Assembly: GCA_030642995.1 (NCBI GenBank)
Contig: DAOWMR010000015.1
Coordinates: forward strand, 1 to 17,622
Length of the DNA stretch: 17,622 nt
Source: Spirochaetales bacterium
GTDB lineage: Bacteria; Spirochaetota; Spirochaetia; DSM-27196; SLST01
Direction of reading: 5' to 3'
Shown: positions 630 to 17,622 of the stretch, piece after piece
Layout: each line of letters starts with the position of its first letter
Position numbering within the stretch: the first letter of the stretch is position 1
Translations under genes and position numbers: made by a program
Notes under the pieces: generated by a model
The model's database searches: none
The model's input: only the letters and a program-made list of their open reading frames with translations
Told to the model about the DNA's origin: nothing

Positions 630-781
630 GGGTTTCTCCTTGTTGGACGTCCGGGATGACGATACAGAGAGCTTCTTCTTTGCGATTGTATTTCATACTA
701 TTCAATCAATGAATGCAAATTCTGGAGCTGTGGAGCTGAAAACTGACTGATATCAACGAGCGAGATCCAAAACCAGGGGTT

Positions 782-1702
782 GTGAAGAAATGGGTGGTTG
801 CCACCCGTCCATTTGCCCTGCCGGCTTCCACCATGCCGGTGATTTTCGGATTTGTACTGGCCGTTACCATCGGATCAGCAGCCCCCAACTGGGTTCTGTT
901 CTTGATCAGTTTGCCGGCTATGGCGATTCTGCATACCGGCGCCAATCTGCTGAATGATGCCTATGATTACCAAAAAGGAATCGATCGCCGTGTAAACCCC
1001 GTCAGCGGCGGCGTGGTCCGAAAGTGGATAACACCCCGCGAAGCCAAGGTAGCCGGATTCGCCTTTCTCCTGATCGGATTGTTGATGGGGTTGTACATAG
1101 TTTCGGTAGTAGGGATGGCAATCTTCTGGATTGGATTGATTGGTGTGTCTATTGGAATCCTGTATAGCTGGGGGCCGCTGCCGCTGAAATTCAATGCCCT
1201 TGGCGATCTGGCGGTATTCCTCAATTTCGGCGTTCTTGGAGCACTGGGGTCCTGGACGGTTCAGACCGGCTCAGTTTCCTGGGTACCTGCAATCTGGGCG
1301 ATGCCGATGTCGCTGCTGGTGGTGGCGATCCTGCATGCCAACAACTGGCGTGATATTGCGGATGACAGTGCATCCGGAATACGAACCATGGCCAATTTGC
1401 TGGGCGATCCGATTTCGGCACACTACTATTCGGTGCTGCTATTCGGCCCCTTCGCACTCATCATCCTACTGATCATCACCACACGGCTGGTCGATCTCGG
1501 ACCGGAGATGCCCTGGTCGTTTCTGGTAACGCTGCTTGCCGTCCCCGCTGCAATGAAACTCAACCGCAAGGGTCGCCGGAGACATACTTCCGAACAGCCG
1601 CTGGATTTCCTGGCCCTGGATGGAGCTACTGCACAATTCAATCTCCAGTTTGGATTGCTCGGCATTGCGGCCCTGATTATCGATGGTTATTTGCCGTTCT
1701 GA
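782..1702 (+). CDS. menA: 1,4-dihydroxy-2-naphthoate polyprenyltransferase (UbiA superfamily, MenA-like)
   Basis: 306-aa polytopic membrane protein. It has the first Asp-rich motif NDAYDYQKGID and a C-terminal motif HANNWRDIADDSASGIRTMANLLG that matches the MenA NxxNLRDIxxDxxxGKxTL(V)xxLG region. A GTG start at 782 was chosen by the ORF track. The SD spacing is short, so the exact start is uncertain. Confidence 0.75.
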   Translation: MKKWVVATRPFALPASTMPVIFGFVLAVTIGSAAPNWVLFLISLPAMAILHTGANLLNDAYDYQKGIDRRVNPVSGGVVRKWITPREAKVAGFAFLLIGLLMGLYIVSVVGMAIFWIGLIGVSIGILYSWGPLPLKFNALGDLAVFLNFGVLGALGSWTVQTGSVSWVPAIWAMPMSLLVVAILHANNWRDIADDSASGIRTMANLLGDPISAHYYSVLLFGPFALIILLIITTRLVDLGPEMPWSFLVTLLAVPAAMKLNRKGRRRHTSEQPLDFLALDGATAQFNLQFGLLGIAALIIDGYLPF

Positions 1703-1730
1703 GTTTCGTAACTGCGGGTGGTTCGATACA

Positions 1731-3407: not shown

Positions 3408-3442
3408 GCTCGCCGAGCCTCCGTGGCAGTGTAACTCTCACA

Positions 3443-4318
3443 TTAACCGCAGATACCCAGGAGAATTTCTCGGATCGGCCCGATATCATCATCATCCGAC
3501 GGGGAACCGAGTATGTGATCTTCGGAGAAGACTATCGAATCACGCAATTCGTCCTGAGCCTTCAGGGTCATCCTGTCATACATGAAGTGAACCTTGTTCG
3601 CCAGAGCCGTTTTGTCTCTGTTGCATTCTTCCCAGTTTGTCAGGATATTCGCATCGAAGTACGCCAGAGAATCAGCGTCGGTCACGACATCTGCCAGGTC
3701 GTTAAGGTTCAACGGCTGCTCAATTTCCGACTGCTTGAGCTGATTCATTCCGTCCTGCTTTTCTCCACCCAGTTCATGCCTGAGAATCAAATAGCGAAGG
3801 TCGTTCGCAAACCCGACGGGGAAATAGCAGCCGTTTCGGGATGCCTGATCAAGAAGTTCCTGCGCTCTTAACGACGAGTTGCGTGCATGTTCTTTCTTGT
3901 GCTCCCGGTAAGTTTCAGGATCGTGCCGTGCTTCCACTTCCCCCATTGTCATCTTGTGCGGGAAAGAGCGGTCTGAATCGTGGAGATGACCAGCGGTTCG
4001 GACGAGTTCAATCGCATACCCGCTAATCCTGAGTTTCATTCCGAGCCTCACGGCAGTTGCTGCGGTGATTTCGGCATGGAGGTAGTCTATGGTGCCGGTT
4101 GTGGGATTGGATATCCTGCTCTGAAGGTATTCGGCGGAAAGGAACTGCGCCCTGTGCAGGCGGATGATTTCGCGGACAGTGTCAGGGTGTATTGCGTCAA
4201 CTCTCACTTCTGGAATTGTGAACCCGATCAATTCCTCATATTTGCCGGCGAGGAAACTGAAGGTTGCGTCCGAAAGATGAAAGGCCTTGTTCTGAAGCGC
4301 TTTGAGTATTTCGTCCAA
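3443..4318 (-). CDS. hypothetical protein with HD-domain-like metal-binding motifs (putative phosphohydrolase)
   Basis: 291 aa, soluble, last gene of the minus-strand operon. Motifs are spaced as in the HD superfamily: DYLHAE, ~35 aa, GHLHDSDR, then RHD, HKKEH and a distal DADSLAYFD. It has a TTG start with a GGGAGA SD. The family call is tentative. Confidence 0.4.
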   Translation of the reverse strand: MDEILKALQNKAFHLSDATFSFLAGKYEELIGFTIPEVRVDAIHPDTVREIIRLHRAQFLSAEYLQSRISNPTTGTIDYLHAEITAATAVRLGMKLRISGYAIELVRTAGHLHDSDRSFPHKMTMGEVEARHDPETYREHKKEHARNSSLRAQELLDQASRNGCYFPVGFANDLRYLILRHELGGEKQDGMNQLKQSEIEQPLNLNDLADVVTDADSLAYFDANILTNWEECNRDKTALANKVHFMYDRMTLKAQDELRDSIVFSEDHILGSPSDDDDIGPIREILLGICG

Positions 4319-4370
4319 GCTATCTCCCGGTATGTATTCGCGAGACTACTCTCCCTGCATGTCTGCGACT

Positions 4371-4580
4371 CTACCTCACCAGCAGCCAGATCCCGACGCC
4401 GATCGCCGCGGCGCCGAAGATGTAGAAGAATATCGCAGTCCCTGTTTCACCGAGCACCTTGATGAATGCCTGAATCTTGCCCATGTTCCATATGCTCTGT
4501 GGCTTCTTGGTGAAGGTCAGAAAGAAAACGAACACGCCGTATAGAACCAGAAATATCCCCAGCAATGCCAAACCGTTCAT
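4371..4580 (-). CDS. small membrane protein (69 aa, two predicted TM helices)
   Basis: ORF MNGLALLGIFLVLYGVFVFF...AIFFYIFGAAAIGVGIWLLVR has two hydrophobic helices. It has a good SD (GAGGAG, 7-nt spacer). It sits between the ABC permease and the HD-like gene in the same orientation. Confidence 0.55.
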   Translation of the reverse strand: MNGLALLGIFLVLYGVFVFFLTFTKKPQSIWNMGKIQAFIKVLGETGTAIFFYIFGAAAIGVGIWLLVR

Positions 4581-4604
4581 ATGTCCACTCCTCTTCTCTG
4601 TTGA

Positions 4605-5609
4605 TTATTGTAGACCGTTCCTGATTCTCTTGTTCAGGAACAGAAAAACCAGCGCGGTAATTGCCAGAACGAAACCGCTGTTCCTGAGGATCAATCCCCA
4701 GGTCGCCTCGTTGAGAATGATAGCATCCAGTGCTTTGTAGGCCCAGTAGAAGGGCGACCAGTAGAGCGCGATTTGCCAGCTGTCCGAGAGGAAGATGGCG
4801 CCGAACACCGAGCCGAAAACGGGGATAAACACGATCTTCATACTTGCCACGGCCTCAATGGGTTCGGTGTTAACCACGCCGATGCTGAATCCGATGATGA
4901 TTCCGATAAATGCAACGCTGATGAAGGATAGGGCAACCATGCCGTAGTTGATGTGTTCGAATCCCAGTATCCAGACAATGCCGAAGGCTCCGACAATCGG
5001 CACCAAAAAGGCAATTACGCTCTTTCCTATGATGAACTCTGTCTTCGAGATGGGAGCGACATTGATTGCCGATAGCGTGTTGCTCATCTTCTCTTCAACA
5101 AGGTTCAGGGTGATCAGCATCCCGCCGAAAACCGCACAGAAGATGATGAGGAAATTTGCTCCGTGCTGTTTGAGCGGCGAGAGTTTCCAGCCGATGTCCG
5201 ATATCCGCACCTCAACGGGGAGAACGACACCCTCATTTTCCAGGGCGTTCACCACCGACTGCAGCATTTGGAGGCCACCAGTTGTCTCATTACCCTGCTG
5301 GATGATGGTGTAACCGTCCTGTGTATTGACCAGTCCGAAGAAATCGTCGGTCTTCCGCACGCGGGCGTTGATACGTTCGATGTCCTCCAGCACCTCTACC
5401 TTGCCGTACCCCTCCAGGTACTCAATCACGATGAGATCAACCGAAGGATCAACCGCAATATTGATCGTCGTCGAACCGGCTCCCGGGATAATGACCTTGA
5501 GGAGGAGGAGGGCAAGCAGGAACGGTGCAATGCTGATATACAGGATGAGAAAATCTCGGGTACCGCTCTTCAGGTCTCTGCGGGTTACCGCCAAGATTCT
5601 TTTCAACAT
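4605..5609 (-). CDS. ABC-2 family transporter permease (second permease)
   Basis: About 6 TM helices with a large first extracytoplasmic loop, typical of ABC-2 permeases. Start moved to ATG 5609 ([13 protein letters not shown]) with a GAGGAGAG SD. The track start at 5654 would overlap the upstream permease by 31 nt. Confidence 0.75.
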
Positions 5610-5623
5610 ATGGTTACTCTCCT

Positions 5624-6658
5624 CTATACCGTCAGAGTTTTCTTGAAGCGCCAATTTGACAGCAGAAAGAAAACAACTCCGGCCAGCGTGAAGCCGAGGA
5701 CGTTCGCGTAGATGTACCCTAGGTTGCCGGCCTCATACAGGGTCTCCCTGAATGCAAAGAGCATGGGATAGGAAGGCAGGATCCTGATGATCAGCGGAGA
5801 GAATGCGGGGTTGTAGTAGGACACCGCGGCGAAGGCGAGGACGATGATGCTCATGTACAGCCATCCCATCGCTTTTGTCATGGTGTTGAAGAAACTGGCG
5901 ATGAACAGCCCGAGCGCCGATCCAAAGACGTTCGTAGCGATCAACAGCAGAATGAGGTGCAGGTAGTGGGCCTTGAGTCCTGCGATAAACGCCGCTGCGA
6001 TCAACCCCGACAACAGCCCCGTTACCAGTATGACCCCCACCTTGCCCAGCAGGTAGTGCCAGACTTTGGCAGGAGTGACCGCGAATGCTCGTATCGTGCC
6101 TTCTTCCTTGTCCAGAAAGATGTATGAAGCGATGATAAACAGCCCCATGAACGCAGCGTTCAGCGCCAGGAAAACCGGAAGCATGTTCAGGCGGTCGGAC
6201 AGTTTTTCGACGTTGCCTTCGAGAGTCGTGACGGTTGTCACGTTCTCGTATCCCGGCATTTCTGCCGCGAACCCGGACTCAATCGAGGTTTTGATGATGT
6301 TCCGGAATTTCTCGTCCTCGTACCCCTGCAGGATGTAGTCATAGACGATTCTGCCGTCTTCCAGACCAACGGCCAGACCAACACTGCCGCGGTCATTCGC
6401 GAGTTCGGTTTCCACTTCCTCTCTGGAGGGCAGAAGAATGATGTCGTATCCCTCCTGGGTGAGAGATTCTTCGGCGGCGGCCTGATAGGGTCCTTCCAGA
6501 TCAAGATGCGCGTACACGGTCACCTTTGGCTCGAAATACTCAGGAACGGCAAGAAGCATGACCGCGACGAAAACAAGCGCAAAACCGATCTCGATGTAGA
6601 TATAGAATCCCTTCAGCGATAACTGCATGTCCTTAAGAAAACTGTAGAGCAGTTTCAT
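5624..6658 (-). CDS. ABC-2 family transporter permease (first permease)
   Basis: 344-aa polytopic membrane protein. It has an N-terminal TM helix, a ~150-aa extracytoplasmic loop and then 5 TM helices. Its start abuts the stop of the ABC ATPase gene (6660). Confidence 0.75.
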
Positions 6659-6659
6659 C

Positions 6660-7514
6660 TTACTGAAGCCCCTTGCCGGTCACCTTGATGAAGATCTCTT
6701 CCAGGGTCGCTTCTTTGGTGTGCATCATCTCCACCTTGCCGGAGTTGACGATGTCATTCAGGTGGTGCATGTCCTTTTCGTCGATGAATGACAGGCGCTC
6801 TTTCTTCACGTCGCCGTTGTCCCGGTATTCCACTTCCACGAGTTGTTCCCCGTGCTGGAGCTTGAGGTTTCTCGGGGAATCGATGAGCTTGATCTCGCCG
6901 TCGATGATGAATGCGACGCGGTCGCAGAGTTCATCGGCGACAAACATGTTGTGGGTAGTGAGGAACACCGTCGTTCCCTTTTCCTTCTCACCCTTCACGA
7001 TCTCCTTGATGACGCTTGCAATTGCCGGGTCCAGGCCGGTGGTCGGCTCGTCAAGGAACCACATTTCGGGACTGTTGAGCATGCTTCGTGCAAAAGTAAG
7101 CCGGTGCTTCATGCCCTTGGAGTATTCTCCTGCCCGCTGTGTTGCGACGTGGTCCAGACCAACAAGCTCGAGCAACTCCTTCGGGTCTCGGGTGGGCACG
7201 TCAAAGAGCCTCCGGTAGAACTCGAGGTTCTCCAGCCCCGTGAGCTTGCCGTACACGTTGGACTGTTCGAAGGAGACACCGATCTTGTTGAACATGGCCC
7301 GGGGTGCCTTCTTCACATCGTAGCCTGCGACGGTGACGTTTCCCTTCTGCAGTGGAAGAAGGCCGGTCATGACACCCTGGGTTGTGGATTTGCCGGCGCC
7401 CGAAGGCCCGAGGAATCCGAAAACCTCACCCTTGGCAATTTCGAAACTTGCGTCCCGTACTGCGTATTTCTCATTATGAGAATAGGAATGATACAGCCCT
7501 TCAACCCTGATCAT
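6660..7514 (-). CDS. ABC transporter ATP-binding protein (ABC-2/DrrA-like)
   Basis: Walker A GPSGAGKST, signature/Walker B YSKGMKHRLTFARSML..FLDEPTTGLD, H-loop TTH. Start ATG 7514 (MIRVEGLYHSY) with an AAGGAG SD. The track GTG at 7535 contains that SD and is therefore unlikely. The start overlaps the SPFH gene end by about 14 nt. Confidence 0.9.
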   Translation of the reverse strand: MIRVEGLYHSYSHNEKYAVRDASFEIAKGEVFGFLGPSGAGKSTTQGVMTGLLPLQKGNVTVAGYDVKKAPRAMFNKIGVSFEQSNVYGKLTGLENLEFYRRLFDVPTRDPKELLELVGLDHVATQRAGEYSKGMKHRLTFARSMLNSPEMWFLDEPTTGLDPAIASVIKEIVKGEKEKGTTVFLTTHNMFVADELCDRVAFIIDGEIKLIDSPRNLKLQHGEQLVEVEYRDNGDVKKERLSFIDEKDMHHLNDIVNSGKVEMMHTKEATLEEIFIKVTGKGLQ

Positions 7515-8655
7515 CGTTCTGCGACTCCTTTTCACTTGATTCTTCGTCTGCCGGATTCCCGGCCCCCGGCTCTTGTAGCACCTGCTTTCCGTATGCGCTC
7601 GCTCCGAGCACCGTTCCGATGTTCATCGATTCCAGAGCGGAAGCGGGCACCAGCACCAACCCGCCCTTGTCCCGCATGCTTTCGTATATCATGTTCATGG
7701 CCCGCAGTTGCAGCGCCACCGGATCATCCCGATATTGCTCCGCAGCCTTCTTGAACGCTCCGGCAATCTCCACCTCGGCCGAACCGAGAATGATGCGAGA
7801 GCCCCGCTCCCGTTCGGCCTGTGCCTGACGGCTGAGAGCGTCCTCGAGCTCCGAGGGAATCAGGATCTCCTTGAACTCGACGGAGATGATGGTGATTCCC
7901 CATGGGTTGGTCTTGGCATCGACGATCTGCTGGATCTCGCCGCCGAGCCTTTCTCGTTCGCTGAGCAGCGTGGTCAGATCATTTGAACCAATGCTTGCCC
8001 TGAGGGCAGTTTGTGCGCTGAGCGACACCGCCTCCTCGAAGTTCTCCACTTCGAGCACGGCTTTTTGCGCGTCCCAGACCATCCAGAAAGCCAGCGCGTC
8101 TACATTCACCGGGACGGTGTCCCGCGTGAGGCTCTTCTCCGCCGAAAAGTCTGTCACCCGGATTCTCGTATCCACATAGCTGGCGGCCGAATCGATGAGC
8201 GGAAACAGGAGCAGCGCGCCGGGGCCCCGCACCTTGTGGAACTTGCCCAGCCGCAACACGATGATTTTGTCCCACTGGCTGATTACCTCCACGCCCGGCG
8301 CGATGAGAAAGCCGATTGTCAGCACGGCTGCCGCATACTGCAGATCGGTGCCGAACACTACGGGCAGCACCGCCCAGATACCGGCGATGATGGCGATAAC
8401 CATCGGCCAGTACGGCAGGATAAACAATACGGCGGCGGCTGCGATGACTCCGGCGGCCAGGTACGACGTCGTCTCGGGGTCCGGGAGCGAGGTTATCAGT
8501 GCCTGAACTCCAAGACCGAGGGCGATGAAAACCAGGATGACCAACGCCGATATGGTGTTGAATCTGAAATGCCCCCGTTGGCGTCCGTTTGGATGAGTTT
8601 TCCTCTGTGCCGTAAACAGGTTCGAGTGAGACCCAATTGCCTTTGTCATGTTCAT
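7501..8655 (-). CDS. SPFH/band-7 (stomatin/prohibitin-like) domain protein with a ~130-aa polytopic N-terminal extension and an acidic C-terminal tail
   Basis: The core IIVLRLGKFHKVRGPGALLLFPLIDS...TRDTVPVNVDALAFW...ERERLGGEIQQIVDAKTNPWGITIISVEFKEI is a classic SPFH domain. The N-terminus has 3-4 hydrophobic helices. The C-terminus is PADEESSEKESQNDDQG. The start ATG overlaps the GntR stop (ATGA at 8652-8655). Confidence 0.8.
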   Translation of the reverse strand: MNMTKAIGSHSNLFTAQRKTHPNGRQRGHFRFNTISALVILVFIALGLGVQALITSLPDPETTSYLAAGVIAAAAVLFILPYWPMVIAIIAGIWAVLPVVFGTDLQYAAAVLTIGFLIAPGVEVISQWDKIIVLRLGKFHKVRGPGALLLFPLIDSAASYVDTRIRVTDFSAEKSLTRDTVPVNVDALAFWMVWDAQKAVLEVENFEEAVSLSAQTALRASIGSNDLTTLLSERERLGGEIQQIVDAKTNPWGITIISVEFKEILIPSELEDALSRQAQAERERGSRIILGSAEVEIAGAFKKAAEQYRDDPVALQLRAMNMIYESMRDKGGLVLVPASALESMNIGTVLGASAYGKQVLQEPGAGNPADEESSEKESQNDDQG

Positions 8656-9059
8656 GTGGTTGCATCCTCCTTGAGGATCGAGAGATACTCAGCCGCTTCA
8701 ACAACGCTGAATCCATACGAAGAAGCCGTGGCCAGGAAAGTGCGAACCAACCCCGCCAGAATCTGTTTACGTTCCTGGGCCGTAAGCTCGATTTTCTTCT
8801 CGCTGATGAAAGTGCCCGTACCCTGCTGCGTATTGACGATCCCGCGGATTTCCAGCTCGCTGTACGCCCGTGCGACGGTATTCGGGTTGATCTTCAGGTC
8901 CACCGCCAGGGCTCGCACCGTCGGCAATTGGTTTCCCGTCCGCAATCTGCCGTCGGCGATGGCCAATTGTGTCTGCATAATGATTTGCCGGTAGAAAGGA
9001 ACTCCGCTCGTCGGATCGAGGAGAAAATGAATACCGCCGGGTTGCCGTTCAGTTGTCAT
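8652..9059 (-). CDS. GntR-family transcriptional regulator, YtrA subfamily (short C-terminal domain)
   Basis: 135 aa. The N-terminal winged HTH (GVPFYRQIIMQTQLAIADGRLRTGNQLPTVRALAVDLKINPNTVARAYSELEIRGIV) is typical of GntR. The C-terminal region is very short (~50 aa), as in YtrA-type regulators that head ABC-transporter operons. It is the first gene of the 7-gene minus-strand operon. Confidence 0.85.
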   Translation of the reverse strand: MTTERQPGGIHFLLDPTSGVPFYRQIIMQTQLAIADGRLRTGNQLPTVRALAVDLKINPNTVARAYSELEIRGIVNTQQGTGTFISEKKIELTAQERKQILAGLVRTFLATASSYGFSVVEAAEYLSILKEDATT

Positions 9060-9073
9060 AGACCGAACCCCTG

Positions 9074-9095
9074 TTGTACTGAATCGTTAGTACAA
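9074..9095. promoter_or_regulatory. candidate GntR operator: inverted repeat TTGTACT-N8-AGTACAA. A third AGTACAAT half-site lies at 9164-9171 and overlaps the putative ctaB -10
   Basis: Perfect 7-bp inverted repeat with a GTAC core, as GntR-family operators commonly have. It lies just downstream of a putative minus-strand promoter (-35 TTGCTG at 9128..9123, 17-nt spacer, -10 TATACT at 9105..9100) and 15-36 nt upstream of the GntR start codon. Confidence 0.45.
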
Positions 9096-9222
9096 TAGAA
9101 GTATAGGGCAGGTTTCGATTTACAGCAAGTGTATTCTGCGTGGTGGCAGCAAGGTTAAATTCGAGTACAATTTCAAGGTCTGGATGCGCAACACCGCCGG
9201 ACAATCACACAGGGAAAATCGG

Positions 9223-10137
9223 ATGGCCACGCAACGACGAACCATTGACGACACACGCAAACATCTGACGGCCAAACTGCGTCTCTACTGGAAGCTGATC
9301 AAGAGTCTCCAGACCGGATTGCTCCTTGCGACCGGCGTGGCGGGCTTCATGAGCGCCCGTTGCCCGGCTCTGGACTGGCGGACGCTACTAGGCATGTCCG
9401 GCAGCCTGTTTCTGGCGATAAGCGGCAGCACCGTTCTCAACATGTGGTACGACCGCGACATCGACGCGAAAATGCTGCGCACGTATTGGCGCCCGTTGCC
9501 ATCAGGCGGGGTCAGCCCGCGTGAGACTGTCGTGCTCGGCCTTGTGCTTTCCATACTGGGAGTGGGGTGGGCCGTAGCTATGCAACCGCTCTACGGACTC
9601 GTTGTGTTTGCCGGGCTGTTCATTGACGTCGTGGTCTACACGATCTGGCTCAAACGACGCACCGCCTGGTCCATTGTGTGGGGTGGGATCTCCGGCGGGA
9701 TGCCGATCCTGGCCGGGCGGGTGCTTGGCATTGCCGCTCTGACGGGAGTGGGGCAGATTGACCTGATCGGAGTTTTGCTGTCGCTGGGGATACTGTTCTG
9801 GATTCCCACCCACATCATGACGTTCAACATGCGCTATCATGATGACTATCAGACCGCGGGCGTGCCCACGTTCCCCTTAGCCTACAGTTTTCAGATGACG
9901 CGGGTGACTATCGCGGTGTCCAGTCTCATTGCGGCTCTGACGATGGGTGGAGCAGTAATGCTTCTCGGCATGACCTGGGGATACTTGCGGTTGCTGGCTG
10001 TGCTCAGCACAGCGCTACTCCTGATGGCCGTCTACAGCGTGGCCCGTCCTTCAGAGAAGATGAACTTTGGTCTCTTCAAGTACGCATCGATCTACATGTT
10101 GAGTCTGATGCTCTTGCTCGTCCTGGGGGCGATATGA
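9223..10137 (+). CDS. ctaB: protoheme IX farnesyltransferase (heme O synthase)
   Basis: UbiA-family membrane protein with the diagnostic heme O synthase motif LNMWYDRDIDAKMLRTYWRPLPSGG (compare N-x-YIDRDID-x-KM-x-RT-x-xRxLxxG). ATG 9223 has an AGGGA SD and a putative -10 TACAAT at 9166-9171. The track start 9184 would leave almost no leader, so 9223 is preferred. Confidence 0.85.
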   Translation: MATQRRTIDDTRKHLTAKLRLYWKLIKSLQTGLLLATGVAGFMSARCPALDWRTLLGMSGSLFLAISGSTVLNMWYDRDIDAKMLRTYWRPLPSGGVSPRETVVLGLVLSILGVGWAVAMQPLYGLVVFAGLFIDVVVYTIWLKRRTAWSIVWGGISGGMPILAGRVLGIAALTGVGQIDLIGVLLSLGILFWIPTHIMTFNMRYHDDYQTAGVPTFPLAYSFQMTRVTIAVSSLIAALTMGGAVMLLGMTWGYLRLLAVLSTALLLMAVYSVARPSEKMNFGLFKYASIYMLSLMLLLVLGAI

Positions 10138-10739
10138 AAAAGATCTCCGTCCTTGACCGGATAGTGCTTCTGATCGTCGGAGTGTTAGCGGCCTATCAGA
10201 TAGTCGTGGGGATCGAGGGATTCTGCACGCTGACCGTCTTGTGCTACACGATCGCCTTCGGCGTGCTTATGTTCGCCGCGCTGCTGTTCATCATCTTTGG
10301 GTTTGACATCCTGGACAGCAAGCTGGTCGTCATCGTGGCTGCGACCATCCCGCTCATCTTGTCGCTGGCACTCATCGCTGAATATCTGCCGTCTGTCAGG
10401 ACGGTGTACATGGCGTTTGCCGTCGTCGGATTCGGTGCGCTTGCCGTCACCCGGTATACCGCCTCCGGTGCTGTTGCGACGGTCGTTCTGGCTACGGTAC
10501 ACGGGATCGCCGGGCTGTTGATCTTCAGCCTGCCGATCATTATTGCCGTGCAGGGAAAGACTTCGCCGGGCTTCGCGTTGGTGGGAGTCGGCGGGGCGTT
10601 AATTGGCACCGGCGGGTCGCTGCTCCTCTTCCTGAAATTGGGCAGGCCTATCCTGTCAAGAGATACGATTTTCACCGTGCTGCCCGTGTTGCTGCTGTTC
10701 ATGACGGCGGCATTCGTGGCCGGGTTGGCGATGCGGTGA
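10134..10739 (+). CDS. uncharacterised polytopic membrane protein (201 aa, ~6 TM), translationally coupled to ctaB
   Basis: Its ATG overlaps the ctaB TGA (ATGA at 10134-10137). The protein is hydrophobic throughout and has no recognisable catalytic motif. Confidence 0.5.
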   Translation: MKKISVLDRIVLLIVGVLAAYQIVVGIEGFCTLTVLCYTIAFGVLMFAALLFIIFGFDILDSKLVVIVAATIPLILSLALIAEYLPSVRTVYMAFAVVGFGALAVTRYTASGAVATVVLATVHGIAGLLIFSLPIIIAVQGKTSPGFALVGVGGALIGTGGSLLLFLKLGRPILSRDTIFTVLPVLLLFMTAAFVAGLAMR

Positions 10740-10748
10740 GGGATTGAG

Positions 10749-11180
10749 ATGGTTGGGAATGAACGCCGGCTCTATGCACTGGCAGGGATCATGTGGAGTG
10801 GCGTCGGTGGCTACCTGGTTTTTCTGGCTTATGGTTGGCTCAAGGCGTTACCCTCATTACGTACCGTTCTTCTCGCAATCGCAGCGGTTCTATTTGCGCT
10901 GGTGATCTACCGTTTTGGCTTCTCTAATCTTGCGAAGAAGAACATCAAACGCATTTCGCTGCTCGAAGGCCGAGTATTCATCTGGGCATTTCAGAGTTGG
11001 CAAAGCTACATCATTATCCCGGTTATGATCGGTTTGGGCATCTTTCTCCGTAACTCACCGCTGCCAAAGCAGTATCTGGCCATCATGTACATCGGCATTG
11101 GTGGCGGCTTATTCTTGTCGAGCCTGCACTACTATGTTTGGCTCGTGCGACCATCTGAGTTGGAAAGGAGTGATGAGTGA
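10749..11180 (+). CDS. uncharacterised membrane protein (143 aa, ~4 TM)
   Basis: A hydrophobic ORF 10 nt downstream of the previous gene with a GAGGGA SD. No family recognised. Confidence 0.45.
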   Translation: MVGNERRLYALAGIMWSGVGGYLVFLAYGWLKALPSLRTVLLAIAAVLFALVIYRFGFSNLAKKNIKRISLLEGRVFIWAFQSWQSYIIIPVMIGLGIFLRNSPLPKQYLAIMYIGIGGGLFLSSLHYYVWLVRPSELERSDE

Positions 11181-11857
11181 TGAATACAATGGCCAAGATC
11201 TTGTGGGTGATCGCAATCATACTGATTGGACTGACGGCGGCAATAACGCTGGTGAGCGGCATCGGTACGTACTGCGTTGCCTGGAACGCCGAGCAATACG
11301 CGGAATTTGCCAACTTTGAGCCGTACAAACCGCTCTACAAGGCGATTGTCGTTCTCACGATTATGGTCGCGCTCGTTGCTGTCGTGGATGTTTATGGCAT
11401 GATACGACGCAAGAAGTGGGCGTACCTGGCCACGCTGTTCACGCTGATCGCAGGTATTGTCGTGGGTGGTACGCACGTGTATTACTCGACCATGTTGCGG
11501 GGAACCGGTATGCCGGGTACCGTCCGGGTTTATCTCTCAGTACTCACACTCGTCGTCCTGCTATTGCTGCGGATTCCCGGCATCTGGCAGGCGATCAACT
11601 CCGGGAAACCATCTGCGGGATCGGGGGCTGGAACGGCAGCCGGTCTGGCGATGAGTGTGTGTGGATTGGCCGTCGTTGCGACGCCCATGTGGGCCGGCCC
11701 GACGCATACTTCTGCCGGCTACAATTGGGTGAATGTCCTGTTGGTGCCCCTGATTGTGGGTGGCGTGGTGTTGATGCTGGCGGGGATAAGTCTGTTGGTG
11801 TTTCCCAAACTGCAAGTGCGTATCGGGAAGCGTCCCCAACCAGTCACGGCACATTAG
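11180..11857 (+). CDS. uncharacterised membrane protein (225 aa, ~6 TM, Gly/Ala-rich central loop)
   Basis: ATG 11180 has an AAGGAG SD (9-nt spacer) and overlaps the upstream TGA by 1 nt. The track GTG start is at 11177. Its stop TAG (11855-11857) overlaps the stop TAA (11856..11854) of the convergent FGE-like gene. Confidence 0.5.
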   Translation: MNTMAKILWVIAIILIGLTAAITLVSGIGTYCVAWNAEQYAEFANFEPYKPLYKAIVVLTIMVALVAVVDVYGMIRRKKWAYLATLFTLIAGIVVGGTHVYYSTMLRGTGMPGTVRVYLSVLTLVVLLLLRIPGIWQAINSGKPSAGSGAGTAAGLAMSVCGLAVVATPMWAGPTHTSAGYNWVNVLLVPLIVGGVVLMLAGISLLVFPKLQVRIGKRPQPVTAH

Positions 11858-12819
11858 GGATTGCGAGCACAACGGAATCCAACTGCCGGACCATAGTACA
11901 CCGGCCCGGCGCTATTCTGTTTCCAGACACGCAGATCCATTTCATAGGTATAAAAACTGCCGCCGCGCATATGACGATAATGCTGGTTCGAGAAATCATC
12001 TCCAACCCACTGCCAGACATTCCCGGCCATGTCATAGAGGCCGTACGGGCTGGCCGAATCGAGTGTTTCGTAATCTTCGTAGGTGTCACCGTTGTAGAAA
12101 CCCACGGGAGTGGTATTGCCCAGCTTCCCAAACATCTTTTCGAACAAGTCGAAAGAAGAATAGGAATTGGCGTTGTTGCCATGAATTTCAGTGCCCCAGG
12201 GGAAAGGCAATCCATACCCGTCCACTAGTTTGGTACCACGAGCGGCTTTCTCCCATTCGGTATCACTGGGGAGCCGCCAACCGTAGAACTCGGCGTACGC
12301 ATTGGCGCCGAACCATGAGACCATTGTCATGGGGTGATTGGCGTATTCAGGGATTGCTGTGAATGATTGCCCATTAAAGGTCAACCGCAAGCCTTCTTCA
12401 TCCAGCGGGATGTAGAGTTTGTCCCCGGCCTTGATTTCAAACTCGTGCTTGTAACCCTGGAAAGGTTCGCCTGCATAGAAACCATACACACCTTCAAGAA
12501 CCGCAACGGATTCCCCGAACTCAACTTCCACCTCACCCACACCAATCTCGCCGGCAGCCAAAGCTTCGTTGAGAAAATCGGCATACTGTTGGTTGGTTAC
12601 GTCGGTGACCATGATCTCATAGTCGTAGTCGACCATGGTCATGTGATCGTGCTGCCCGTAGGGGAACTCACCGGCGGGAATGACAGCCCAGGAATCGGGG
12701 TCAATCCCGGTATCGATAGAGGGCGGTACAATTGCTCCGACGCTGGATGTCGGCGTACAGGCGGTTGTCAACAAAGCAAGCACCGTAAGCAAGATCATGA
12801 GATGTATCAAACGTTTCAT
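11854..12819 (-). CDS. formylglycine-generating-enzyme (FGE/SUMF1) family domain lipoprotein
   Basis: FGE-sulfatase domain signatures: WAVIPAGEFPYG, VTNQQYADFLN, GWRLPSDTEWEKAARG, YDMAGNVWQWVGD, RGGSFY, VGFRCARNP. There is an N-terminal signal peptide with a lipobox-like LLTTAC. Its ATG overlaps the stop of the upstream membrane protein (ATGA at 12816-12819). Confidence 0.85.
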   Translation of the reverse strand: MKRLIHLMILLTVLALLTTACTPTSSVGAIVPPSIDTGIDPDSWAVIPAGEFPYGQHDHMTMVDYDYEIMVTDVTNQQYADFLNEALAAGEIGVGEVEVEFGESVAVLEGVYGFYAGEPFQGYKHEFEIKAGDKLYIPLDEEGLRLTFNGQSFTAIPEYANHPMTMVSWFGANAYAEFYGWRLPSDTEWEKAARGTKLVDGYGLPFPWGTEIHGNNANSYSSFDLFEKMFGKLGNTTPVGFYNGDTYEDYETLDSASPYGLYDMAGNVWQWVGDDFSNQHYRHMRGGSFYTYEMDLRVWKQNSAGPVYYGPAVGFRCARNP

Positions 12820-14357
12820 TCTGACACCCCCTTCAGGGTTTCTTCGAGTTTTTCCAGTTTTCGCTTCTGTTCTGCGATTTCAGACTCGGCGCTGAGTTTC
12901 GTCTCAGCCGCCAGTTCCTGCGCCCAGCGGCCGTTCCTGGTGAGGAGATCGTACAATCGCCACAGCATGAAGACACACAGAATGATGAGCACAACCCCCA
13001 GGCCGATATCGGTCAACAGCATGGTCCAGTTGACGATGGATTGCTGCGCAACTTCGGTGACGAAGAGGCGCTTCATCGAAAAGATAGTCACCGCGCCAAA
13101 AGCCAGATCGGACATCAGGATCAATACCCACCCGAACCATTTGCGGGCTTTGCCCTTCAGGCCCGACAGATCCGCGAAATACATCAGGATGATGGTTGCG
13201 ATCAGCGCTGCGAGGATGTGCCAGTGTCCGGTAAGGGTGACCCGTTCTTCCCGATGCGGCCAGACACGGAATATCTCCTCCAATTTGACTGCCAGAAAAA
13301 TGCCAACGCCACTGACGGTAAAATTCATGAAGACCATCTGCCAACCCGGGCCGAACTTCAACGGGTCGTGCAGGAGCGCCTTGATTTTCTGCCAGGCGTT
13401 GGGTTTTTCGATACCCAGTTCCGCGATGCGATTCTTGATTTGTTGATCCCAGGAGAAGATCACATATAGCAGGGCGGCTGTCATCACCAGGACGGACCCA
13501 ATATAGATGATGTTGTGTGCCCACGTGAACCACACAATGGACAGCGCGCCAATCGTGATCACAATTGTGCCGGAAATCATCAGCCACATGGCGATCTTGT
13601 GGAAGATCCCTTTGAACTTCATCCAGCGGCCCACAATCAATGTGAGGGCGACCGCGATCAGGGTCAGCATGATATGCAGGTGGCCTACAATGGCCTTCTG
13701 CAAAGCTGTCTTCAGGGGGATGCGGATCAGGTCTTCCGCCAGGAAGGTTTCGTGGCCGTTACCCCAATACGAGCCGGTCACCGCGCCAAAAGAAGCGGAG
13801 ATCAACGCGGCAGCAACCATCACGAAGAAGGCGGCTCGCTCCAGATCAATACCTTTCCGGGTGTGTGCGTAGGGCGAATCCTCCGGCAAGAGGTATTCCT
13901 TTTTCCAGGGCCACAACGCGGCGCCTAACAGCAAACCCGCGAAGAAGACTAACGACTGGCCAACCAGGAACAGACCGTGGTAGACGAAATTGTGGCCAAA
14001 GTAGCCAAAGATCAAGCCGAAAATGATAGCCGTCAAATAGCCGATGGTGATGGTGGTGTTGATCATGGTCTGTTCGTGTTTTTTCATCGGCACCATACCG
14101 GTGATGAAATACACTTCAATTGCCAGGATCGTCATGGCAATGGTGTGATAGAGCATGATGATTCGCCCTTCACGTTCAGCCTGAACCAAATCCATATTGA
14201 GGAGGCGGACGGTGATGTCTCTGACACCCCATTCGACCATCGGGCCGGAGAGCGTTCCCCAGACGGCGGTTGCCACCGCAACGACAGCCATTGCGACCAG
14301 CGCCAATCCCTTGGTCGAAGTGAAGAGATAGGTAAGTCGTTTTTTTAGTCCTTGCAT
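12816..14357 (-). CDS. uncharacterised 12-TM histidine-rich integral membrane protein with a C-terminal coiled-coil tail
   Basis: 513 aa from ATG 14357 (GGAGG SD, 7-nt spacer). The track TTG start is at 14381. Twelve hydrophobic helices are predicted. Intramembrane or helix-edge histidines occur at TM2 (LYHTIAM), after TM3 (GHNFVYHG), TM6 (GHLHIML), after TM7 (AHN) and at TM10 (GHWHIL). The C-terminus ELAAETKLSAESEIAEQKRKLEKLEETLKGVSE is a charged heptad-like region. No named family recognised. Confidence 0.6.
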   Translation of the reverse strand: MQGLKKRLTYLFTSTKGLALVAMAVVAVATAVWGTLSGPMVEWGVRDITVRLLNMDLVQAEREGRIIMLYHTIAMTILAIEVYFITGMVPMKKHEQTMINTTITIGYLTAIIFGLIFGYFGHNFVYHGLFLVGQSLVFFAGLLLGAALWPWKKEYLLPEDSPYAHTRKGIDLERAAFFVMVAAALISASFGAVTGSYWGNGHETFLAEDLIRIPLKTALQKAIVGHLHIMLTLIAVALTLIVGRWMKFKGIFHKIAMWLMISGTIVITIGALSIVWFTWAHNIIYIGSVLVMTAALLYVIFSWDQQIKNRIAELGIEKPNAWQKIKALLHDPLKFGPGWQMVFMNFTVSGVGIFLAVKLEEIFRVWPHREERVTLTGHWHILAALIATIILMYFADLSGLKGKARKWFGWVLILMSDLAFGAVTIFSMKRLFVTEVAQQSIVNWTMLLTDIGLGVVLIILCVFMLWRLYDLLTRNGRWAQELAAETKLSAESEIAEQKRKLEKLEETLKGVSE

Positions 14358-14439
14358 ATCTATGCCTCCAAATAGGGACAAACAGTCAACTTGATTGTGA
14401 AAGGTTCCACGAAGTTATCATGAAATATCGAGAGAGTCC

Positions 14440-14453
14440 TTGACCAAGGTCAA
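14440..14453. promoter_or_regulatory. perfect 14-bp palindrome TTGACCAAGGTCAA (operator copy 1) with a conserved flank, upstream of the histidine-rich membrane protein gene
   Basis: TTGACC-AA-GGTCAA is a perfect inverted repeat, 89 nt upstream of ATG 14357. Its left half could double as a -35 (TTGACC, 18-nt spacer, GATATT on the minus strand). A second copy is at 16257-16270. Confidence 0.6.
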
Positions 14454-14469
14454 GTTCCAAGGAAACCAC

Positions 14470-14497
14470 CCCCTCTCCGGCAAGAACCAGAGAGGGG
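14470..14497 (-). terminator. candidate rho-independent terminator for the upstream two-gene minus-strand unit
   Basis: GC-rich stem CCCCTCTCCGG / CCAGAGAGGGG (11 bp, one mismatch) with a 6-nt loop. On the minus-strand transcript it is followed by GUGGUUUCCUUGG (a weak U-tract). It lies 46 nt downstream of the stop at 14544 and just upstream of the operator/promoter for the next gene. Confidence 0.4.
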
Positions 14498-14543
14498 CGA
14501 TCTCGCGGGCGAAGGCAGAAGAAGGATTTACCCTGACTTCAGA

Positions 14544-15341
14544 TCAACTTTCGTGTTCACCGGAGTCTGCAATCAGCTTCTGTGTGCCTGGCAGCAAGAT
14601 GATGACAAGAAGCACCGTGCTGATAACCGGAGCCGGCAAGAACATTGAGAATCGACCCAATTGCACCGTGTTGGTGATTCCCATCGGGTAAGCACCCATC
14701 ATGGACATCATGGCTGCAAAAACACCCAACGGCACAGTCCACTTCTTCTTCTTGAGGACAGCAAAGATGAACATTGCCCAGGCGGCGGCGCCCCACCAGG
14801 TAACTTGCTGCGACATGGCAAACATACCGTTCATGAAGCTATCGTCCACGGACAACTGGAAATAGGCAATCACGCCGACCCCGTCCATAAACGTCAAGAC
14901 ATATGCCAAACCGGCCACAAAGAGCAGGGCGATGACCTTCATTTTGACACGGCCAATCAGCAGCATACCAAACCATAGAACGGTCGCCAGCAGGAAGACC
15001 CAAATCGTGGGAAAAGGCATCCCGATGCTGGAGGGTGGGATGATCGGGAAAAAGCCGACAAGCATCTGGACGGTGGCCGCCACAGTACCCCAGAACCAGG
15101 CCCATTCCAGTTTTTTCACGAAGCCGTAGAGCACGGCCCCCCACAATGCGCCGGCAGTTATGCCCAGCCAGCCAAGCAGGGCGAAGACGATCTGAACAGT
15201 AACGGCTTCATCCGGGCGACCACCGGCAATTTTGCCCGCAATGGTCGGGTTGTAGATGTCCGCCATCAAGTAGAATGTCAGCAATCCGGTCAGGACACCG
15301 ACTATGGCGAGTACAATACCGAGCTTATTGTTTCCTTTCAT
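14544..15341 (-). CDS. uncharacterised Trp-rich polytopic membrane protein (265 aa, ~8 TM), paralog of the upstream gene
   Basis: ATG 15341 has a GGAGA SD (6-nt spacer), 8 nt after the upstream stop. The track start is at 15362. It shares N-terminal VLAIVGVLTGLL, central K-EW-F, GMPFPT, TWW and KKKKW with the 15352-16188 product (VLAIVIGLL, KGEEW, GFPIP, TWW, KRKGWW). Confidence 0.55.
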   Translation of the reverse strand: MKGNNKLGIVLAIVGVLTGLLTFYLMADIYNPTIAGKIAGGRPDEAVTVQIVFALLGWLGITAGALWGAVLYGFVKKLEWAWFWGTVAATVQMLVGFFPIIPPSSIGMPFPTIWVFLLATVLWFGMLLIGRVKMKVIALLFVAGLAYVLTFMDGVGVIAYFQLSVDDSFMNGMFAMSQQVTWWGAAAWAMFIFAVLKKKKWTVPLGVFAAMMSMMGAYPMGITNTVQLGRFSMFLPAPVISTVLLVIILLPGTQKLIADSGEHES

Positions 15342-15351
15342 GATGATTCTC

Positions 15352-16188
15352 CTATTGATCATCCTTGATCAGCTTCTTCTTGAAATACGGAACCAACGTG
15401 AAGAAAAGGACGCCGATGGACAACAGTGCACCGTAAAGATAGTCCATCGTCTTCGTGCGGATAAACTGCGTGGGGGCGTCAATCGCCAGGATGGCAACCG
15501 CAGCAATGACGGCAAACCACCAGCCTTTGCGTTTGCCGACAGCCAACAGCGGAATGGAGATGACCAGCAGGATAACCGCCACCCAGTTAACCTCACCGGC
15601 CCAGCTGAACAACCACCACGTGAAGTCCTGATACATGGGATATCCAGGGCGGGTCCACATGGTTCGCTGGGCGCCAATACCGATGGTGAAGGCGTGAGTA
15701 GCCAACATGCCGATGAAAGTCAGGGCGCCGAAACGAGTCCACTTTTGCATTCTTTCGGCCTTGCGCAGGAAAATGAAGCTCCAATAACCTACCAGACCAG
15801 TGACCGAAATCAACAGCGGGATCGGGAAGCCGTCCACCCAACTGACGTACGGGAGGAACATGAACATACCGCCAATTGCAGGCAGCGCAAACAGAGTTAC
15901 GGCAAGCGGATAGGTCCACTCTTCGCCTTTCCTGATTTCTTGTGAGATCACGATCAGGGCGGCGCCTGCGACAAAAATGACGGCTCGCCAGATCGGATAG
16001 AAGAAATCAAAGAGCGGAATCCCGCTTTCAAACGTGGGGTGACCGGCGTTGATATGATCGATCAACCCGACCAATACTCGTTCAAGCGATTTCTGGACGA
16101 TGAAAGGGACCACGCCCACCATCAACAGGCCAATAACAATGGCGAGAACCGACATGACCGTTCGGTTTTTCTGTGAAGTTTCTTTCAT
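15352..16188 (-). CDS. uncharacterised Trp-rich polytopic membrane protein (278 aa, ~8 TM), paralog of the downstream gene
   Basis: ATG 16188 (MKETSQKN) has an AGGAGAG SD (7-nt spacer). The track start at 16227 lacks an SD. The protein is hydrophobic and has a DHINAGHPTFESG loop. See the paralog evidence above. Confidence 0.55.
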   Translation of the reverse strand: MKETSQKNRTVMSVLAIVIGLLMVGVVPFIVQKSLERVLVGLIDHINAGHPTFESGIPLFDFFYPIWRAVIFVAGAALIVISQEIRKGEEWTYPLAVTLFALPAIGGMFMFLPYVSWVDGFPIPLLISVTGLVGYWSFIFLRKAERMQKWTRFGALTFIGMLATHAFTIGIGAQRTMWTRPGYPMYQDFTWWLFSWAGEVNWVAVILLVISIPLLAVGKRKGWWFAVIAAVAILAIDAPTQFIRTKTMDYLYGALLSIGVLFFTLVPYFKKKLIKDDQ

Positions 16189-16256
16189 TTTCACTCTCCT
16201 AGGAAAAAAATTGCGTTCTAGTGTCATGAGAATCGCAGATAAATTCGAAAGAGTAA

Positions 16257-16270
16257 TTGACCCAGGTCAA
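16257..16270. promoter_or_regulatory. perfect 14-bp palindrome TTGACCCAGGTCAA (operator copy 2) in the divergent region between the membrane-protein unit and the RpiR gene
   Basis: It has the same TTGACC-N2-GGTCAA architecture as 14440-14453. The 17 nt on its low-coordinate side (tcgaaagagtaa) resemble the flank of copy 1 (tcgagagagtcc). Over 31 nt the two copies are 24/31 identical. It lies 75 nt upstream of ATG 16188. Confidence 0.6.
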
Positions 16271-16373
16271 TCGCGGGGGCAGCACGATCAACGCCGACGG
16301 GCGACATCATCCCCCAAAACAGAAATAAAACTTGCAGTGATTGAGCAAGAAGAAAGAAACTTTCCAAAAATCG

Positions 16374-16403
16374 TTGACAAAGGAATATTTCGGTACCCAT
16401 AAT
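16374..16403 (+). promoter_or_regulatory. sigma70-like promoter for the RpiR gene (TTGACA-N18-CATAAT)
   Basis: TTGACA at 16374-16379 and CATAAT at 16398-16403. The predicted transcription start is ~25 nt upstream of ATG 16438. Motif-based only. Confidence 0.4.
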
Positions 16404-16437
16404 GGGAAACACCGAAAGAGAACGGGAAGGAACCGAA

Positions 16438-17328
16438 ATGATAACAAAATCAGACAGCTATCATCAGATCATTGAAGTATATGACGATCTGTCTAGACAG
16501 CAGAAGAAGATTGCTGATGGGATCATCAATCGGTGCGACGAGATCGTCTTCTTTTCAATTACCCAGCTCGCGAATTTTCTCGGGGTGAGCGAAGCTACGA
16601 TTGTCCGGTTTGCTCAGCATCTGGGGCACAAGGGCTTCCCCGAACTGAAGGAAGACCTGGTGAAGTACTACCGGGAATATCTTACTCCCGGGGCACGGAT
16701 GAGACGATCCATTGAAGAATTCCCCGATGACCCTCTTCTGTATAAGAGCCATGCGGCACGTGAGATACAGCTGCTGGAGGAATCGCTCCAGGCAGTTGAC
16801 AACGATAGTTTTGTTCAAGCTGTTGAAGCGATCGTTCAGGCCGAGCGGATATTTCTTTTCGGTAACGGAGGGAATGAATGCCTTGCCAATCATCTCACCT
16901 TTCGTCTCTCCCGTTTCAAGTTGAAAGCCATACAGCAATCCGTTTCGGGAAAAAATCTCTTTGAAAAATTCCTGCAGATAGAAAAGAGCGATCTCATAAT
17001 CGCCTATCATTTCTATAAACCAACAATAGACTTCAGGCGGCTCATGGAGGTGAGTGCTGAACGGGAGGTTCCTGTTCTCCTCATGACTGATTCCCTCGTG
17101 CCGCCGATGATTCGTCACGCCAAAATCGTTCTTTTTGCTCCGAGGGGCTCAGCCGGGACCTTCCATTCTCAGGTTGTCCCAATGGCCATCAACAACGCCC
17201 TGATAAATGGCGTAGCCAGCAAGCTCGGGAACAAGGCTGTGAAGGCATTACAGGAGTTGAGTGATATGAGGCAAAAACATTATTTCAGTGACTTTTCCTC
17301 ACTGATATCACATGAAAACGATCAATGA
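16438..17328 (+). CDS. RpiR/MurR-family transcriptional regulator (N-terminal HTH_6 + C-terminal SIS domain)
   Basis: The HTH FSITQLANFLGVSEATIVRFAQHLGHKGFPELK is characteristic of RpiR. The C-terminal region (IFLFGNGGNECLANHL...) is SIS-like. ATG 16438 (MITKSDSY) with a GGAAGG SD gives 296 aa, typical for the family. The track start at 16402 adds 12 aa. Confidence 0.85.
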   Translation: MITKSDSYHQIIEVYDDLSRQQKKIADGIINRCDEIVFFSITQLANFLGVSEATIVRFAQHLGHKGFPELKEDLVKYYREYLTPGARMRRSIEEFPDDPLLYKSHAAREIQLLEESLQAVDNDSFVQAVEAIVQAERIFLFGNGGNECLANHLTFRLSRFKLKAIQQSVSGKNLFEKFLQIEKSDLIIAYHFYKPTIDFRRLMEVSAEREVPVLLMTDSLVPPMIRHAKIVLFAPRGSAGTFHSQVVPMAINNALINGVASKLGNKAVKALQELSDMRQKHYFSDFSSLISHENDQ

Positions 17329-17622
17329 ACCACGAAATTCTCCTCGGCGCAGTTTGCTATCAGGAGTATTCCAGAGACTATCTTGATTTTCTTGAACTAG
17401 CGGCCGAGCTCAAACTCTCCTGGGTCGAGTTCAAATACGAACCACCTCTCTGTTATCGAAGTAGATCGCGCAGATATGTCGATATTCGGAAACAGGCTGA
17501 TGATTTCGGAATCAACCTGTCCATGCACACCGCATTTGACGGTTTGAATATCGCCTCCCTGGATGACAAGGAGCGAGCCCGGTCTCTTGATACTGTACAG
17601 GAGTCGATTGATGCAGCTGCGC
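17325..17622 (+). CDS. sugar phosphate isomerase/epimerase (xylose-isomerase-like TIM barrel) family protein, N-terminal part only
   Basis: Hand translation from ATG 17325 gives MNHEILLGAVCYQEYSRDYLDFLELAAELKLSWVEFKY...ADDFGINLSMHTAFDGLNIASLDDKERARSLDTVQESIDAA, a typical AP-endonuclease-2/xylose-isomerase-like barrel N-terminus. The ATG overlaps the RpiR TGA (ATGA). The ORF runs to the window end, so the track did not list it. Confidence 0.6.
   Translation, partial: MNHEILLGAVCYQEYSRDYLDFLELAAELKLSWVEFKYEPPLCYRSRSRRYVDIRKQADDFGINLSMHTAFDGLNIASLDDKERARSLDTVQESIDAAA

Follow-up and report, generated by a model that had tools for sequence, protein, structure and literature searches.

The window analysed here, the whole 17,622-nt stretch of contig DAOWMR010000015.1 from a Spirochaetales bacterium (assembly GCA_030642995.1, positions 1 to 17,622), carries two palindromic boxes upstream of membrane-protein genes. 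Both boxes are 14-bp inverted repeats of the form TTGAC-N4-GTCAA, and both are intergenic and upstream of minus-strand genes. Box 1 lies at 14440–14453 (plus-strand letters TTGACCAAGGTCAA, minus-strand letters TTGACCTTGGTCAA) before the gene for a 513-aa membrane protein, M513 (12816–14357, minus strand). Box 2 lies at 16257–16270 (plus-strand letters TTGACCCAGGTCAA, minus-strand letters TTGACCTGGGTCAA) before the genes for two membrane proteins of 278 and 272 aa, M291 and M272 (15352–16188 and 14544–15362, both minus strand).

The M291 and M272 genes overlap by 11 nt, so they form one operon with M291 first. The M513 gene overlaps by 4 nt with that for a lipoprotein with an FGE-sulfatase domain (FGE; 11854–12819, minus strand; PF03781, E 2e-36), so these two form another. 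None of the three membrane proteins has a Pfam or NCBIfam match. On the minus strand, the edge of box 1 is 82 nt from the M513 ATG (14357) and that of box 2 is 68 nt from the M291 ATG (16188). An earlier reading from the sequence alone, here the sequence-only reading, had placed two palindromes at these very coordinates, 65–90 nt upstream of minus-strand membrane-protein units, and both the coordinates and the distances hold.

The pattern TTGACCNNGGTCAA matches the window exactly twice, at box 1 and box 2, versus no match in 200 dinucleotide-preserving shuffles. With two mismatches allowed, a single extra match appears, inside a coding sequence. When the sites are compared on the minus strand, 13/14 box positions and 11/17 following nucleotides are identical, and this recomputed 24/31 equals the identity reported before. 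Both boxes agree with the E. coli FNR consensus at 8/10 positions and with the HcpR1/Anr form at 10/10. Written as an intergenic search pattern, the box is TTGAYNNNNRTCAA.

The promoters were aligned with those of close relatives, defined as contigs with an M513 at least 88% identical. At the M513 promoter, TTGACCTTGGTCAA of the window is replaced by TTGACCTCGGTCAA in L143, TTGATCTTGGTCAA in L148, TTGACTGCGATCAA in L150 and TTGATCTCAGTCAA in L083. At the M291 promoter, TTGACCTGGGTCAA is replaced by TTGACTTACGTCAA in L143 and TTGACGTCGGTCAA in L148, with none listed for L150 and L083. Throughout the five M513-promoter and three M291-promoter versions, the 5-bp half-sites TTGAY and RTCAA are kept and all four central bases vary. 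The half-sites are thereby conserved in close relatives at both orthologous promoters.

Since the half-sites are kept and the centre varies, positions 6 and 9 included, the functional unit is TTGAY-N4-RTCAA. The spacing of the CRP/FNR type proposed by the sequence-only reading stands, but its TTGACC-N2-GGTCAA does not stand as the conserved unit, because positions 6 and 9 vary. The box type is best read as FNR/Anr/Dnr/HcpR1 with TTGAY-N4-RTCAA.

Each box is followed by an extended −10 element on the minus strand, at 14412–14420 in promoter 1 (TG-A-TAACTT; predicted start near 14405) and at 16229–16237 in promoter 2 (TG-C-GATTCT; predicted start near 16222). In both elements, TG stands one base before a hexamer whose second base is A and whose sixth is T. 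At the −35 position, promoter 1 has AGGACT and promoter 2 has ATTACT, matching at 3/6 each. In a promoter register that places the box centre at 7.5, TG-n-TAnnnT occupies 34–42 and the −10 hexamer 37–42, and the register from box to −10 is identical in the two promoters.

Because of this fixed distance to the conserved extended −10, the box centre would be at about −41.5 in both promoters if transcription starts 7 nt after the −10. Of 23 FNR-activated promoters in E. coli, 19 carry the site at −41.5 ± 4 (PMC3688515). The alignment of promoter 1 (A2) shows no variation in the TG, the TA and the closing T of the −10, and that of promoter 2 (A3) shows none in TCTG.GATTCTC. Also invariant in A2 are the G and A of GGAC (14436–14439, minus strand), which directly follows box 1 at the −35 position and is the counterpart of an AGAC conserved in relatives.

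Site 1, in register with its relatives, reads TTGACCTTGGTCAA GGAC N13 CA-TG-A-TAACTT, and the box appears to sit upstream of, and abut, the −35 position rather than being the −35. The left half had been supposed to occupy the −35 position itself, an idea that fails as the conserved −10 is 11 nt further downstream than it implies. A terminator-like hairpin (14470–14497, minus strand; 11-nt arms, 91% complementary) closes the upstream operon and is kept in L143 with perfectly complementary arms. Its position between that operon and box 1 speaks for box 1 as part of a promoter.

We consider it probable that the boxes are a pair of class II FNR-type activator sites for a regulator encoded outside the window. 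They are a known kind of control element, a standard bacterial control site, in a new setting. A dimeric CRP/FNR-family regulator of the FNR/Dnr/HcpR1 specificity (half-site TTGAY) would bind each box. With an extended −10, a weak −35 and the box at −41.5, the bound dimer would contact RNA polymerase about 41.5 bp upstream of the predicted start and activate transcription in the class II manner. The M291-M272 and M513-FGE operons would then be switched on together, and the signal is likely redox, O2 or nitric oxide (NO).

The closest counterpart is the class II promoter of E. coli FNR (TTGAT-N4-ATCAA at −41.5). The window boxes share its 14-bp repeat with 5-bp half-sites and an N4 centre, would likewise lie at about −41.5 from the predicted start beside a weak −35, and have relatives in their own lineage that use TTGAT/ATCAA besides TTGAC/GTCAA. 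They differ in that the half-site ends in C rather than T, leaving the 8/10 agreement, and in that they belong to a probable spirochaete and to a gene cluster typical of Anaerolineae. The Anr and Dnr boxes of Pseudomonas (TTGAT/C-N4-A/GTCAA, at respiratory genes) have the same degenerate consensus as the window boxes. The cbb3 oxidase and nor genes are typical Anr/Dnr targets, and M513 has a predicted fold like theirs but is too diverged for a Pfam COX1 match.

The core TTGAC-N4-GTCAA is identical to that of the HcpR1 motif wyTTGACnnnnGTCAArw, HcpR1 itself being a computational prediction, and the wy and rw flanks fit the window boxes partly (PMC1274295). The likeness is one of motif only, as the HcpR regulon targets hcp and frdX are found in neither the window nor the conserved cluster, and the targets in the window are oxidase-like membrane proteins. 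The Anr box too is written TTGac-N4-gtCAA (PMC4974557). Thus TTGAC is not the novel C/G specificity variant that it had been taken for, since TTGACnnnnGTCAA is the published predicted HcpR1 consensus and falls within Anr-box usage (PMC1274295, PMC4974557).

The CRP sites of E. coli (TGTGA-N6-TCACA) share the protein family and the logic of a dimer on a palindrome. The window boxes differ from them by a T, not G, at the discriminating position and by an N4, not N6, centre. True TGTGA-N6-TCACA sites do occur at the M291 promoters of Anaerolineae relatives, beside CRP-like paralogues (R-E---R).

For the wider comparison, loci with orthologues of the genes were taken from genomes (80 loci) and metagenomes (53 loci). 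In 37 of the genome loci, M513 has within 6 kb a member of a BLAST-defined cluster of 54 CRP/FNR-family open reading frames (ORFs), whose representative has cNMP_binding and HTH_Crp_2 domains. Homologues of these ORFs occur in 36 of the metagenome loci. The paralogues split into several recognition-helix types. TTGAC-N4-GTCAA with at most one mismatch is found within 350 nt of 12/21 paralogues with Pro-Glu at CRP positions 180–181 and of 3/62 with other residue pairs there. These counts are phylogenetically non-independent, and synteny and shared ancestry confound them.

For the predicted HcpR1 group, replacement of R180 by Ser or Pro goes with wyTTGACnnnnGTCAArw, TTGACnnnnGTCAA (PMC1274295). 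The association of Pro-Glu with the box agrees with this published correlation at residue 180 (PMC1274295), and boxes of the relatives adjoin CRP/FNR paralogues with Pro 180 and Glu 181.

None of the 80 genome loci, which are of the Anaerolineae type, has an exact TTGAC-N4-GTCAA at the orthologous positions. We rejected non-conservation as the meaning of this absence, as the upstream regions show the same architecture with different box sequences. This architecture is a 14-bp TTGnC-N4-GnCAA, usually AGAC, 13 variable bases and then TGTG-n-TAnnnT, which combines an extended −10 with an upstream motif of the TRTG type. The AGAC is at register positions 15–18 in 36/53 orthologous promoters. TG-n-TAnnnT is at positions 34–42 in 53/80 M513 and 40/53 M291 orthologous promoters, as in the window promoters and the close relatives.

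A composite scan for a box of at least 6/8 and TG..TA...T at 5/5 at the fixed spacing gave 63 hits in the 80 loci versus 1–6 in shuffles. In an equivalent listing that includes the window, almost all hits are upstream of M513, M291, M272, CRP-family or cytochrome genes. At the M291 orthologue promoters of the 53 metagenome loci, the box is mostly TTGCGTTAA(A/G)GCAA. An offset palindrome shifted by 3 nt, G.CTTT-N4-AAAG.C, was tried as the unit of the Anaerolineae M513 promoters and rejected, as it misfits site 2 and the M291 promoters. The position of the box is ancient, and its sequence and the neighbouring regulator differ between Anaerolineae and the probable spirochaete lineage.

The Anaerolineae promoters carry two further features of their own. 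One is a second palindrome with the CRP consensus TGTGA-N6-TCACA over the −10 and +1 of M291/M272 promoters (L013:420, L019:1756, L041:4932, L051:1458, L066:720, L070:2351 and, upstream of M291, most of L085–L141). A CRP-like paralogue with helix TREMVCR lies immediately upstream of M291 there, often divergently, and the window has neither these sites nor this paralogue. The other is a strong inverted repeat of variable sequence (z < −3) that encloses the −10 in 17/53 M513 promoters, about 60–120 nt upstream of M513 (L005, L009, L021, L028, L043, L050, L054, L068 and others). Of its two arms, the 5′ one takes up the promoter spacer and the 3′ one falls within the 5′ untranslated region, often before a T-run. 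One possible role is that of a read-through terminator overlapping the promoter. This repeat is absent from the window promoters.

Several points weigh against the activator reading. A CRP/FNR-family domain was not found in the 18 main ORFs of the 17.6-kb window, as the sequence-only reading had already said. The Anaerolineae boxes differ from those of the window (TTGCGTTAAAGCAA; TTGnCTTTTAATAA), and those at M513 often have a degenerate right half, so continuity of the regulator across the lineages is not certain. The confounding of the paralogue counts noted above belongs here too. Moreover, the start predictions rest on sequence, and a consensus scan offers an alternative −10, GATATT, with an 18-nt spacer, which would have the box cover the −35 and the spacer, as expected of a repressor site.

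This last point leads to the alternative of a CRP/FNR-family repressor on the same box, with TTGACC as the −35, a −10 18 nt downstream (GATATT at site 1, GAATTT at site 2) and a dimer that blocks polymerase. It would imply starts near 14417 and 16234 rather than 14405 and 16222. TTGACC matches TTGACA at 5/6, the scan itself chose TTGACC-18-GATATT at site 1, and FNR is known to repress from sites between −35 and +1 (PMC3688515). However, the −10 picked by the scan is not conserved in relatives, where it reads GATGTT, GTACTT, GGCGTT and TGGTAG, and was rejected; its counterpart GAATTT at site 2 scores 2/6. The TG-n-TAnnnT downstream of it is invariant in the close relatives and general in about 90 orthologous promoters. 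We therefore regard repression as unlikely, and the activator reading as the one that the conserved −10 argues for.

The gene nearest to box 2 on its other side encodes an RpiR/MurR-family regulator (16438–17328, plus strand), which heads its own operon and lies outside the element. This protein had been offered as an alternative cognate regulator with the palindrome as its operator. Box 2 is indeed in the intergenic region common to the RpiR gene, the closest relative L143 is arranged alike with a 94% identical RpiR, and a regulator swap is conceivable as Anaerolineae have a CRP-family gene at this neighbouring position. But RpiR is at the orthologous cluster in 0/80 genome loci and 0/53 metagenome loci, and in L148, whose M513 is more than 90% identical, both boxes persist and a GGDEF gene stands where RpiR would be.

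The RpiR orthologues (72–77% identical; L145–L147) head an operon of AP_endonuc_2, PGM/PMM, two binding proteins, phytase and an ABC transporter. The gene after RpiR in the window is likewise AP_endonuc_2, and the upstream neighbours of these orthologous operons differ from those in the window. No TTGnC-N4-GnCAA box occurs within 17 kb at the operons of L145, L146 and L147. The RpiR gene of the window belongs to its own conserved sugar-phosphate operon. Since it is absent at the orthologous loci and heads a box-less operon of its own, it is a neighbour by rearrangement and not a likely cognate regulator.

The promoter of RpiR (16374–16403) is TTGACA-18-CATAAT, with its −10 inside a different palindrome, TTTCGGTACCCATAATGGGAAACACCGAAA (16388–16417), a candidate RpiR auto-operator. 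This palindrome is largely conserved in L143. Taken with the FNR type of the box by sequence, spacing and position, it makes the RpiR protein a very unlikely regulator of the boxes, and the claim for it is not supported. Overall, what survives of the sequence-only reading is a conserved regulatory box of the CRP/FNR type with FNR spacing, common to two promoters and borne out by the footprint and the fixed spacing to the −10; its claims about the unit, the specificity, the −35 and RpiR do not.

The near-identity of the two sites extends beyond the boxes. The spacer is identical at 9/13 positions between the window promoters, which ranks in the top ~2% when related promoters are compared in pairs; the median is 3/13 for the promoter pairs within genomes of relatives, whose two boxes differ. 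The two promoters share a spacer element, ACTCTCTCGA (14428–14437, minus strand) with its twin ACTCTTTCGA at 16245–16254. This element is kept in L143 and partly in L148 and is not found in L150 or L083, and GGACTCTYYCGA is common to both L143 promoters. ACTCTYTCGA occurs in the window at these two places only, but its count is not below the chance expectation, so it was rejected as a separate motif.

A duplication, or else conservation, of the whole promoter-operator had been suggested from this likeness. The near-identity in the window is real, but the box positions are ancient and the two boxes differ in relatives. Near-identity of both box and spacer in this sub-lineage makes local homogenisation plausible on the alignments.

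The same likeness bears on the alternative that no dedicated regulator exists, TTGACC being a plain −35 and the palindromes the outcome of chance or promoter copying. TTGACC is −35-like, and the unusual 24/31 nt common to the two promoters fits a recent copy. However, three to five diverged relatives keep both half-sites around a variable centre, a bare −35 needs no downstream half GTCAA, the pattern had no match in the 200 shuffles, and the conserved −10 is too far, with a 30-nt spacer, for TTGACC to be its −35. We give this alternative hardly any credence.

The least credible alternative places the function of the palindrome in RNA, where its transcript would fold into a hairpin that serves, for instance, as a leader or processing signal, and not in DNA bound by a protein. 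The box can be drawn as a fully paired stem of 6 bp around a 2-nt loop, or of 5 bp around a 4-nt loop, and many Anaerolineae M513 promoters have strong variable inverted repeats nearby. However, box 1 has a terminator-like hairpin immediately upstream, the window regions fold unremarkably (z = −0.6 and −0.9), covariation is lacking (pairs 4/11 complementary in 8/53 M513 and pairs 5/10 in 9/34 M291 promoters), positions 5/10 or 6/9 are non-complementary in L143, L148 and L150, and an Rfam scan of the window and nine loci at the gathering threshold matched tRNA only. The hairpin was rejected for its lack of covariation and the unremarkable folding.

The probable activator sites stand before a conserved gene cluster. 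The order in the 80 loci is M291, M272, a NapH-like ferredoxin or T201 paralogue, M513, FGE, UbiA317, T201, T226 and T143. Homologues of M513 number more than 3000, share about 75% identity and come almost entirely from Anaerolineae or Chloroflexota, and FGE is syntenic with M513 in nearly all of the 80 loci. The M291 orthologues in the 53 metagenome loci are 70–81% identical. In the window the cluster occupies 9184–11857 on the plus strand and 11854–16188 on the minus strand, and 6/9 of its genes lack a family assignment.

A fold search suggests that M513 resembles the catalytic subunit of heme-copper oxidases and NO reductases, while a sequence search of the PDB with the M513 profile gave no match. 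UbiA317 scores as a heme O synthase (TIGR01473, 205 bits versus a cut-off of 210), and the clusters of relatives add a NapH-like ferredoxin and multihaem cytochromes. The cluster is thus predicted to encode a divergent membrane complex like a heme-copper oxidase or NO reductase. Enzymes of both kinds are classic FNR-type targets.

Other features of the window stand apart from the boxes. The heme O synthase unit has an inverted orientation and converges on FGE, unlike in the 80 relatives, where it follows FGE on the same strand. At 4605–9059 on the minus strand, unrelated to the boxes, is an operon with a short GntR-family regulator (YtrA-like, 135 aa), an SPFH/Band 7 protein, an ABC ATPase and two ABC-2 permeases. 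An FNR-like site with one mismatch, CTGACTGATATCAA, lies at 743–756, 26 nt before the GTG of a second UbiA-family gene (782–1702). It was rejected as a further box: the start codon is too close for a −41.5 placement, and 6 such sites observed versus 2.3 expected is in the chance range.

As to the lineage, the closest genome match for M513 is L003, a 'Spirochaetales bacterium', at 88%, and the closest homologues of the window RpiR (72–94% identical) are labelled Spirochaetales or Spirochaetaceae. These labels point to a spirochaete, rather than to Anaerolineales, as the probable source of the window. The cluster is otherwise overwhelmingly of Anaerolineae, so a spirochaete window suggests horizontal transfer. 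A fuller scenario, that the Anaerolineae-typical cluster was transferred into a spirochaete lineage, lost its CRP neighbour and had its promoters rewired to a resident FNR/Dnr-like regulator, we hold only tentatively and rather doubt, its basis being labels of metagenome-assembled genomes and synteny. In such a transfer, the neighbouring CRP-family gene and the TGTGA-N6-TCACA and TTGCG..CGCAA sites would have been lost in the new host, and both promoters would have been rewired, and partly homogenised, to canonical TTGAY-N4-RTCAA boxes.

In summary, the two boxes tie a very widespread, uncharacterised membrane-protein cluster to FNR-type control. The promoter series across the relatives is a clean example of operator turnover at a fixed promoter geometry. 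Together, the FNR-type link, the oxidase- or NO reductase-like fold and the heme O synthase give the testable idea that the cluster may serve respiration or detoxification under low O2 or NO.
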